From a virus (taxonomy: Duplodnaviria > Heunggongvirae > Uroviricota > Caudoviricetes), in IMG/VR virus record IMGVR_UViG_2671180577_000021: a stretch of DNA of 19,655 nt; one strand, written 5' to 3'. The number at the start of each line of letters is the position of its first letter. Within the stretch, counting starts at the first letter, position 1. Of this stretch, positions 17,001 to 19,655 are shown in pieces. The position numbers are program-made.

Positions 17001-19655
17001 GGCCGCCAAACGTGGAGCGATGGGTCGTCGTACGCTGGGTATTGGTGTGATCAACTTCGCTTACTACCTGGCGAAGCACGGTGTGCGTTACTCCGACGGC
17101 AGCGCCAACAACCTGACGCATAAAACCTTCGAAGCGATTCAGTATTACCTGCTGAAAGCGTCTAACGAGCTGGCAAAAGAGCAAGGCGCGTGCCCGTGGT
17201 TTAACGAAACCACTTACGCGAAAGGGATCCTGCCGATCGATACCTATAAGAAAGATCTGGATACCATCGCTAATGAGCCGCTGCATTACGACTGGGAAGC
17301 ATTGCGTGAATCAATCAAAACGCACGGCCTGCGTAACTCCACGCTTTCTGCCCTGATGCCGTCAGAGACTTCTTCACAGATCTCTAACGCCACTAACGGT
17401 ATTGAACCGCCGCGCGGTTACGTCAGCATCAAAGCGTCGAAAGACGGTATTTTGCGCCAGGTGGTGCCGGACTACGAGCACCTGCACGACGCCTATGAGC
17501 TGCTGTGGGAAATGCCGGGTAACGATGGCTACCTGCAACTGGTAGGTATCATGCAGAAATTTATCGATCAGTCGATCTCTGCTAACACCAACTACGATCC
17601 GTCACGTTTCCCGTCAGGAAAAGTGCCGATGCAGCAGTTGCTGAAAGACCTGCTCACCGCCTACAAATTCGGGGTCAAAACGCTGTATTATCAGAACACC
17701 CGTGACGGCGCTGAAGACGCGCAGGACGATCTGGTACCGTCAATCCAGGACGATGGCTGCGAAAGCGGCGCATGTAAGATCTGATAATCCCCCAGCCTTT
17801 GCACCAAACCGTCCCCTCTCCCCTTGCGGGAGAGGGTTAGGGTGAGGGGTAATAAAACCACAGGACACACTCATGGCATATACCACCTTTTCACAGACGA
17901 AAAATGATCAGCTCAAAGAACCGATGTTCTTTGGTCAGCCGGTCAACGTGGCTCGCTACGATCAGCAAAAATATGACATCTTCGAAAAGCTGATCGAAAA
18001 GCAGCTCTCTTTCTTCTGGCGTCCGGAAGAAGTTGACGTTTCTCGCGACCGTATCGATTACCAGGCACTGCCTGAACACGAAAAACACATCTTTATCAGC
18101 AACCTGAAATATCAGACGCTGCTGGATTCCATTCAGGGCCGTAGCCCGAACGTGGCACTGCTGCCGCTGATCTCGATCCCGGAACTGGAGACCTGGGTCG
18201 AAACCTGGGCGTTCTCAGAAACGATTCATTCCCGTTCCTATACTCATATCATTCGTAATATCGTTAACGATCCGTCTGTTGTGTTTGACGATATCGTCAC
18301 CAACGAGCAGATCCAGAAACGTGCGGAAGGGATCTCCAGCTATTACGATGAGCTGATCGAAATGACCAGCTACTGGCATCTGCTGGGCGAAGGCACCCAC
18401 ACCGTTAACGGTAAAACTGTGACCGTTAGCCTGCGCGAGCTGAAGAAAAAACTGTATCTCTGCCTGATGAGCGTTAACGCGCTGGAAGCGATTCGTTTCT
18501 ACGTCAGCTTTGCTTGTTCCTTCGCATTTGCAGAACGCGAATTGATGGAAGGCAACGCCAAAATTATTCGCCTGATTGCCCGCGACGAAGCCCTGCACCT
18601 GACCGGCACCCAGCATATGCTGAATCTGCTGCGCAGCGGCGCGGACGATCCTGAGATGGCGGAAATTGCCGAAGAGTGTAAGCAGGAGTGCTATGACCTG
18701 TTTGTTCAGGCAGCTCAACAGGAGAAAGACTGGGCGGATTATCTGTTCCGCGACGGTTCGATGATTGGTCTGAATAAAGACATTCTCTGCCAGTACGTTG
18801 AATACATCACCAATATCCGTATGCAGGCAGTCGGTTTGGATCTGCCGTTCCAGACGCGCTCCAACCCGATCCCATGGATCAACACCTGGCTGGTGTCTGA
18901 TAACGTGCAGGTTGCTCCGCAGGAAGTGGAAGTCAGTTCTTATCTGGTCGGGCAGATTGACGCGGAAGTGGACACCGACGATTTGAGTAACTTCCAACTC
19001 TGATGGCCCGCGTTACCCTGCGCATCACTGGCACACAACTGCTGTGCCAGGATGAACACCCTTCCCTTCTGGCGGCGCTGGAATCCCACAATGTGGCGGT
19101 TGAGTATCAGTGTCGCGAAGGTTACTGCGGCTCCTGTCGCACCCGTCTGGTTGCAGGTCAGGTTGACTGGATTGCCGAACCGTTAGCCTTTATTCAGCCG
19201 GGGGAAATTTTGCCCTGTTGTTGCCGGGCAAAAGGCGATATTGAAATCGAGATGTGAATTGGTTGTAGTGCCAGATACAACGCTTATGCGTCTTATCTGG
19301 CCTACAACGATTACATGGCGTAGTAATACGCTTTCACCTGCTCCCAGTCCGCTTTGGGGATTGGCTCCAGATATTTTTCCAGCTGGCGGAAGTCATGATT
19401 AATCGCTTTATCGCGACGCAAGCGGCGACGACTTTTCTCCAGGTCAAGAAAACCAGCTTCTGCATTACCTTCTGTTTTCACATAGATATGGCGAACATAA
19501 CAACTGAACCGCCCCGGGAATCCTGGAGACTAAACTTCCTGAGAAAGAGGTAAACAGGATGACTAAAAATACTCGTTTTTCCCCTGAAGTCCGTCAACGG
19601 GCAGTCCGTATGGTTCTGGAAAGTCAGGGCGAATATGACTCACAATGGGCGACAA

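Follow-up and report, generated by a model that had tools for sequence, protein, structure and literature searches.

IS629 inactivates genes in Escherichia coli O157:H7, for example in O-rough strains, and has been described as comprising three sub-types that lie 4-5% apart and as producing target duplications of 3-4 bp (Rump et al., 2011; PMC3271280). The insertion described here, which lies in the chromosomal gene inaA, is like those O157:H7 knockouts in the element concerned, in the mechanism by which a backbone gene is knocked out and in its use as a clone marker, and differs from them in the target gene and in the host background, which is closest to O103-type non-O157 strains. InaA is a Mar/Sox/Rob-regulated protein, and inaA is a non-essential gene of E. 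coli. IS629 is a member of the IS3 family, within the isoform group IS629 / IS1203 / IS3411. The event is of an ordinary and already known kind, the insertion sequence and the mechanism both being known and the target non-essential. The literature searched contained no paper naming inaA together with IS629, and searches for the assembly accessions or for inaA with pseudogene and Shigella returned nothing relevant.

The window (the whole stretch of 19,655 nucleotides that was analysed, catalogued as the virus record IMGVR_UViG_2671180577_000021) is byte-identical to CYAX01000065.1, a whole draft contig of assembly GCA_001285865.1, to which exact look-ups of its rare UbiG and GyrA variants had led. 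We propose that an E. coli clone acquired one copy of IS629 (1310 bp, IS3 family) in its chromosomal inaA by transposition; the DDE transposase responsible would arise through a -1 programmed frameshift that joins orfA and orfB. The element would have landed between codons 153 and 154 of 216, duplicating the 4-bp target CAAC, and its transposase genes would run antisense to inaA. This would split the gene into a 5' piece consisting of InaA residues 1-153 plus 13 IS-derived residues, and a 3' piece of 63 codons that the element would separate from the inaA promoter. We put the probability of this reading, a simple insertion of a single IS629 with duplication of CAAC that split and inactivated inaA, at about 0.92. 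Both junctions, the duplication, the empty site and the identity of the visible IS ends were read directly from deposited sequence, and the insertion is present in many sequenced isolates, which belong to a small clone.

In K-12, inaA comprises 651 nt and 216 codons. Its synteny is retained, with inaA convergent with nrdAB-yfaE and downstream of glpTQ: in the window, the plus-strand genes nrdA (15499-17784), nrdB (17873-19003) and yfaE (19003-19257) are followed by a short spacer and then by inaA on the minus strand. What the window holds of inaA is its 3' remnant (19311-19504, minus strand), which corresponds to the last 194 nt of the gene, namely the stop codon (19311-19313), the 63 complete codons 154-216 (19314-19502) and the last 2 nt of codon 153. 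The remnant is identical to nt 458-651 of K-12 inaA (194/194 nt, 100%), and the other 152 full codons are absent from the contig. Similarity of the window to complete E. coli genomes ends exactly at 19504 in each of them (5,426/5,426), and where K-12 continues from CAAC into AGCCATG, the window continues from CAAC into TGAACC, the start of TGAACCGCCCCGGG. The break between inaA and IS sequence is unambiguous. An earlier note, made from the sequence alone, had described the last ~63 codons of inaA as intact and ~150 as missing, and had placed the IS terminus at 19505; its codon counts agree with ours, and the terminus that it quoted and its coordinates are right, inaA identity ending at 19504 and the IS beginning at 19505.

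From 19505 to 19655 (plus strand) the window contains the left end of the element, that is the first 151 of 1310 nt, which match a 1310-bp IS3-family element at 151/151 positions (E = 2e-72) and are identical to positions 2501-2651 of the record carrying our reference copy (L002). The repeat could not be bridged by the assembler, which is why the contig ends 151 nt into IS629. The reference copy (L002, 2501-3810) is 1310 bp long, starts with TGAACCGCCCCGGG, ends with CCCGGGGCGGTTCA, and has inverted repeats and flanking 3-bp direct repeats; its coding sequence is annotated as 'IS3 family transposase, programmed frameshift', and the domain matches are HTH_Tnp_1 for OrfA and HTH_21 together with rve for OrfB. 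At inaA, TGAACCGCCCCGGG forms the first letters of the element at 19505, the termini are of the TG...CA type, and the right end, seen on other contigs (L044, L051-L060), reads CCCGGGGCGGTTCA. The 14-mer TGAACCGCCCCGGG has one exact match in the window, with 0.16 matches expected by chance when two mismatches are allowed. The left terminal inverted repeat (19505 to about 19529, plus strand) begins with 5'-TG and matches the reverse complement of the reference copy's right end at 23/25 positions, the first 14 perfectly. The start of orfA follows on the plus strand (19559-19655), with an ATG at 19559 and 32 codons that run opposite to inaA transcription, and it is identical to the beginning of the annotated programmed-frameshift transposase gene in the reference record. 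These 32 residues match HTH_Tnp_1 weakly, whereas the full 108-aa OrfA of the reference copy matches it clearly.

Copies that are 99.8-99.9% identical to the reference over 1310 bp (H58, H68, H100-102) carry the depositor annotation 'IS3 family IS629, IS629 transposase OrfA/OrfB'. With this depositor name on near-identical 1310-bp copies, 151/151 identical positions at the left end and 106/107 at the right end (L044 against L002), the identification as an IS3-family, IS629-like element made in the earlier note is borne out. The visible parts of the insert share with IS629 the TG...CA termini, the imperfect inverted repeat of ~25 bp, the orfA start and the 4-bp duplication, and show no difference from it beyond 1 nt of the right end relative to the reference copy. 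That single difference is at the 28th nt from the terminus (AAAACACTCTCC in L044, AAAATACTCTCC in L002) and is synonymous in the fusion ORF. An element whose start is identical to that in the window occurs in 3,606 of the 5,426 complete E. coli genomes. The left 151 nt are nearer to copies on Shigella flexneri plasmids (99.3% identity) than to those on pO157-size plasmids (96.0%) or to a copy labelled 'IS1203 family' by PGAP (92.7%), and these identity bands fit the three published IS629 sub-types (PMC3271280).

The missing part of inaA was sought through its expected product. The product of the 5' fragment was predicted under target duplications of 3 bp and 4 bp and then looked up exactly. 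The 4-bp prediction, a protein of 166 aa consisting of InaA 1-153 and the 13 IS-derived residues CEPPRVSWRVFYL, had exact matches on 11 contigs and bears the NCBI name 'pH-inducible protein involved in stress response (putative kinase) [Escherichia coli]'. One of the contigs that encode it, CYAX01000077.1, belongs to the source assembly GCA_001285865.1 itself, and at least nine sister assemblies encode it too. The 3-bp alternative, modelled on the flanks of the reference copy, gave a 206-aa fusion without a full-length homologue, and neither this fusion nor five cut versions of it were present in the collection. On CYAX01000077.1 and the sister contigs, inaA nt 1-461, identical to K-12 at 461/461 nt, is joined to the right end of IS629, and the order on L044 is glpT, glpQ, a 68-aa ORF, inaA nt 1-461 and then 107 nt of the IS629 right end. 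The earlier note had considered the 5' part of inaA to be displaced or deleted, and had proposed looking for the other junction and a 3-4 bp duplication; the 5' part is displaced, the junction lies in the same assembly, and the duplication is the 4-bp CAAC.

The right junction reads gctgttg followed by TGAACCGCCCCGGGTTTCC (also given as TGAACCGCCCCGGGTTTCCTGGAGAG) on CYAX01000077.1 and in the nine sister assemblies (10/10). On the plus strand of the window, the left junction reads ACATAACAAC (also given as ATAACAAC) followed by TGAACC, the right junction (L044; also L051-L060) reads GGTTCA followed by CAACAGCC (for L044 also given as CAACAGCCATG), and the empty site of L024, L040 and K-12 reads ACATAACAACAGCC (also ACATAACAACAGCCATG). 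CAAC is thus found at both junctions, its left copy occupying 19501-19504, and only once in the empty site. The 4-bp duplication falls inside the published range of 3-4 bp for IS629 (PMC3271280). Because both junctions and the empty site together give this duplication, the event is read as a simple insertion without deletion.

Taken by itself, the window would also be compatible with an IS-mediated adjacent deletion that removed the first 152 codons of inaA, possibly along with genes next to it, as its contig ends inside the IS. The finding of inaA nt 1-461 together with the IS629 right end on CYAX01000077.1, and of glpT and glpQ upstream in L044, refutes such a deletion, for which practically no probability remains. 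An equally negligible chance attaches to the join of inaA and IS being a short-read assembly chimera: it does lie 151 nt from the end of a draft-assembly contig, but the break sits exactly at the first base of the IS, and the left junction recurs in 5 other assemblies and the right one in 10. These assemblies come from two or more deposit series (CY.. and PQ..) and agree on the 4-bp duplication.

Two further explanations accept the insertion and concern what lies between or beyond the junctions. After a simple insertion, homologous recombination between IS629 copies may have inverted or translocated a segment, so that the two halves of inaA would no longer be neighbours. IS629 copies number in the dozens in related E. 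coli (in up to at least 40 places per record), and the assemblies of the clone all break at the IS, between the two halves. The junction contigs nevertheless keep the ancestral order up to the IS, where nrdAB-yfaE flank one end and glpT-glpQ the opposite one, and the matching 4-bp duplication implies that the two ends began as one element; with no sign of rearrangement, we regard this as very unlikely and infer that the two halves are adjacent today. Still less likely is a larger composite insert, in which two IS629 copies in direct orientation would enclose cargo. It would likewise produce a target duplication, and the visible insert amounts to 151 nt on the left and about 105-107 nt on the right, from which the IS629 interior and the 1310-bp length of the inaA copy are extrapolated. 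IS629 occurs, however, overwhelmingly as single copies, thousands of which measure 1310 bp, and there is no hint of cargo. A single simple insertion of IS629 is therefore the reading that we retain.

The consequences for the gene follow from the position of the break. PF06293 (the Kdo/WaaP kinase family) spans InaA residues 11-213; the 166-aa fusion keeps positions 1-149 of the Pfam profile and the translation of the 63-codon remnant matches positions 144-207 of 207 (E = 6.6e-17), neither having the whole domain. Judged from this truncation, inaA is almost certainly null, because IS629 cuts its single Kdo/WaaP kinase-like domain at codon 153/154. No promoter-like site was found beside the remnant. 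The neighbouring genes should be unaffected, and no polar effect is expected, since inaA and yfaE are convergent, with a strong hairpin between them, and inaA has nothing downstream of it. This hairpin, in the yfaE-inaA spacer (19262-19308), is long and nearly perfect (-30.1 kcal/mol, z = -7.9, with 0/200 shuffles as stable) and probably represents a REP-type element or, given its place between convergent genes, a bidirectional terminator.

The identical left junction occurs in five other assemblies, with 5-132 nt of IS, and seven more contigs end 3-4 nt before it. On the right side, contigs L046-L050 stop at inaA nt 457/458. Both halves were found, on separate contigs, in four assemblies (GCA_001285865.1, GCA_017117915.1, GCA_001284885.1 and GCA_001286205.1). 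Scans for the left junction found it in none of the 5,426 complete E. coli genomes, nor in the species-representative genomes or the JGI metagenomes, and the predicted right junction, with a duplication of 0-6 bp allowed, was likewise missing from the latter two collections; no sequence spanning the whole insert was found among the contigs or the 5,426 complete genomes, and exact look-up of two small junction-spanning ORFs gave no record. The gene is intact in relatives that share the rare UbiG allele (L024) or the rare GyrA allele (L040) of the window, and in every genome read that carries the YfaL variant of the window, a variant that is widespread. Because close relatives with the same rare UbiG or GyrA alleles keep an intact inaA, the insertion is recent and specific to this clone; precise excision as the source of the intact gene in L024 and L040 is less parsimonious.

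The left-side contigs L028, L029, L031, L036, L038, L039 and L041 end at 19500/19501, the edge of the duplication, and contain no IS sequence. These and L046-L050, likewise free of IS sequence, have NCBI accessions of pathogen-surveillance style, and the contigs of the CY.. and PQ.. series together with L026 retain 80-151 nt of IS. Stopping at the duplication edge is probably assembler behaviour. The clone is the source of partial InaA records at NCBI with lengths of 151-153 aa and 62-65 aa. The protein record P0064 (InaA 1-152) was rejected as a count of the clone, as it mixes contig-end partials of the clone with an unrelated C153* nonsense allele (L045), and look-up of a 56-aa ORF of the remnant gave only other inaA lesions (IS1, frameshifts) and not the IS629 allele.

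The source proteins are labelled Escherichia coli by NCBI. The chromosomal part of the window shows 99.77% identity to TW08637 and 99.9% to several CDC and NCTC genomes. Among complete genomes, the O103 strain RM8385 gives one of the best matches to the backbone, whose identity to O103-type and related non-O157 genomes is 99.8-99.9%. IS ends that match those in the window at 100% are found in diverse commensal and pathogenic E. coli. IS629 alone is a poor lineage marker because identical ends occur in such diverse hosts, and the suggestion that the element points to Shigella or O157-type E. coli is accordingly weak, the nearest backbone being non-O157 (O103-type). The window encodes GyrA S83L (codon at 9823-9825 in gyrA, minus strand, 7444-10071), with A at 9824 where most relatives have G; this is the classic first-step fluoroquinolone-resistance substitution. 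The exact GyrA protein was absent from the 11 relatives fetched at that stage. Compared with nine relatives, single-nucleotide differences private to the window lie in gyrA (7719 and 8782), ubiG (10578), nrdA (16287) and nrdB (18394).

Loss of inaA is not restricted to this clone. In public assemblies of E. coli and Shigella (L003-L012, L045) the gene has been independently disrupted on many occasions, with many disrupted proteins (P0001, P0003, P0005, P0032, P0038, P0068-P0077). The other lesions include an IS1 insertion with a 9-bp duplication of nt 469-477, a 1-nt deletion, a 5-nt insertion, a 25-nt deletion, C153* and several aberrant tails; InaA forms truncated at contig ends (60-145 aa) are also numerous, one 78-aa form named S. 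sonnei occurring on 57 contigs. These other natural null alleles (IS1, frameshifts, nonsense) affect the same gene independently and differ from the IS629 allele in molecular event and lineage. Several of them, among them the IS1 insertion and C153*, lie within about 20 nt of the IS629 site, and none shares the IS629 junction. The IS629 insertion shows InaA to be dispensable in natural isolates. That its repeated loss would reflect selection in some pathogenic or antibiotic-exposed lineages, and not neutral decay, strikes us as improbable. The clone with the IS629 insertion also carries GyrA S83L.

The insertion explains why draft assemblies break at this position, and it accounts for the 166-aa 'putative kinase' and the partial InaA records at NCBI. 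Its left junction, ACATAACAAC followed by TGAACCGCC, is a clean clone-specific marker that could serve to type or track this group of isolates. Beyond such bookkeeping its importance is small, as it involves no new mechanism, element or gene.

At its other end, the window begins with the integrase end of a lambdoid prophage (1-4989). The contig starts inside bet, of which a fragment is present, and continues with exo (253-933), an Ead/Ea22-like gene, xis and int (3919-4989); the prophage end abuts the 3' end of a MagC/DUF1175 gene (4984-5637, minus strand). In sister contigs L034-L036 the inaA insertion is the same, but this site has no prophage. Of the 44 differences from TW08637, 29 cluster at 82-956 of the window, a clustering that suggests that the exo/bet region is mosaic.
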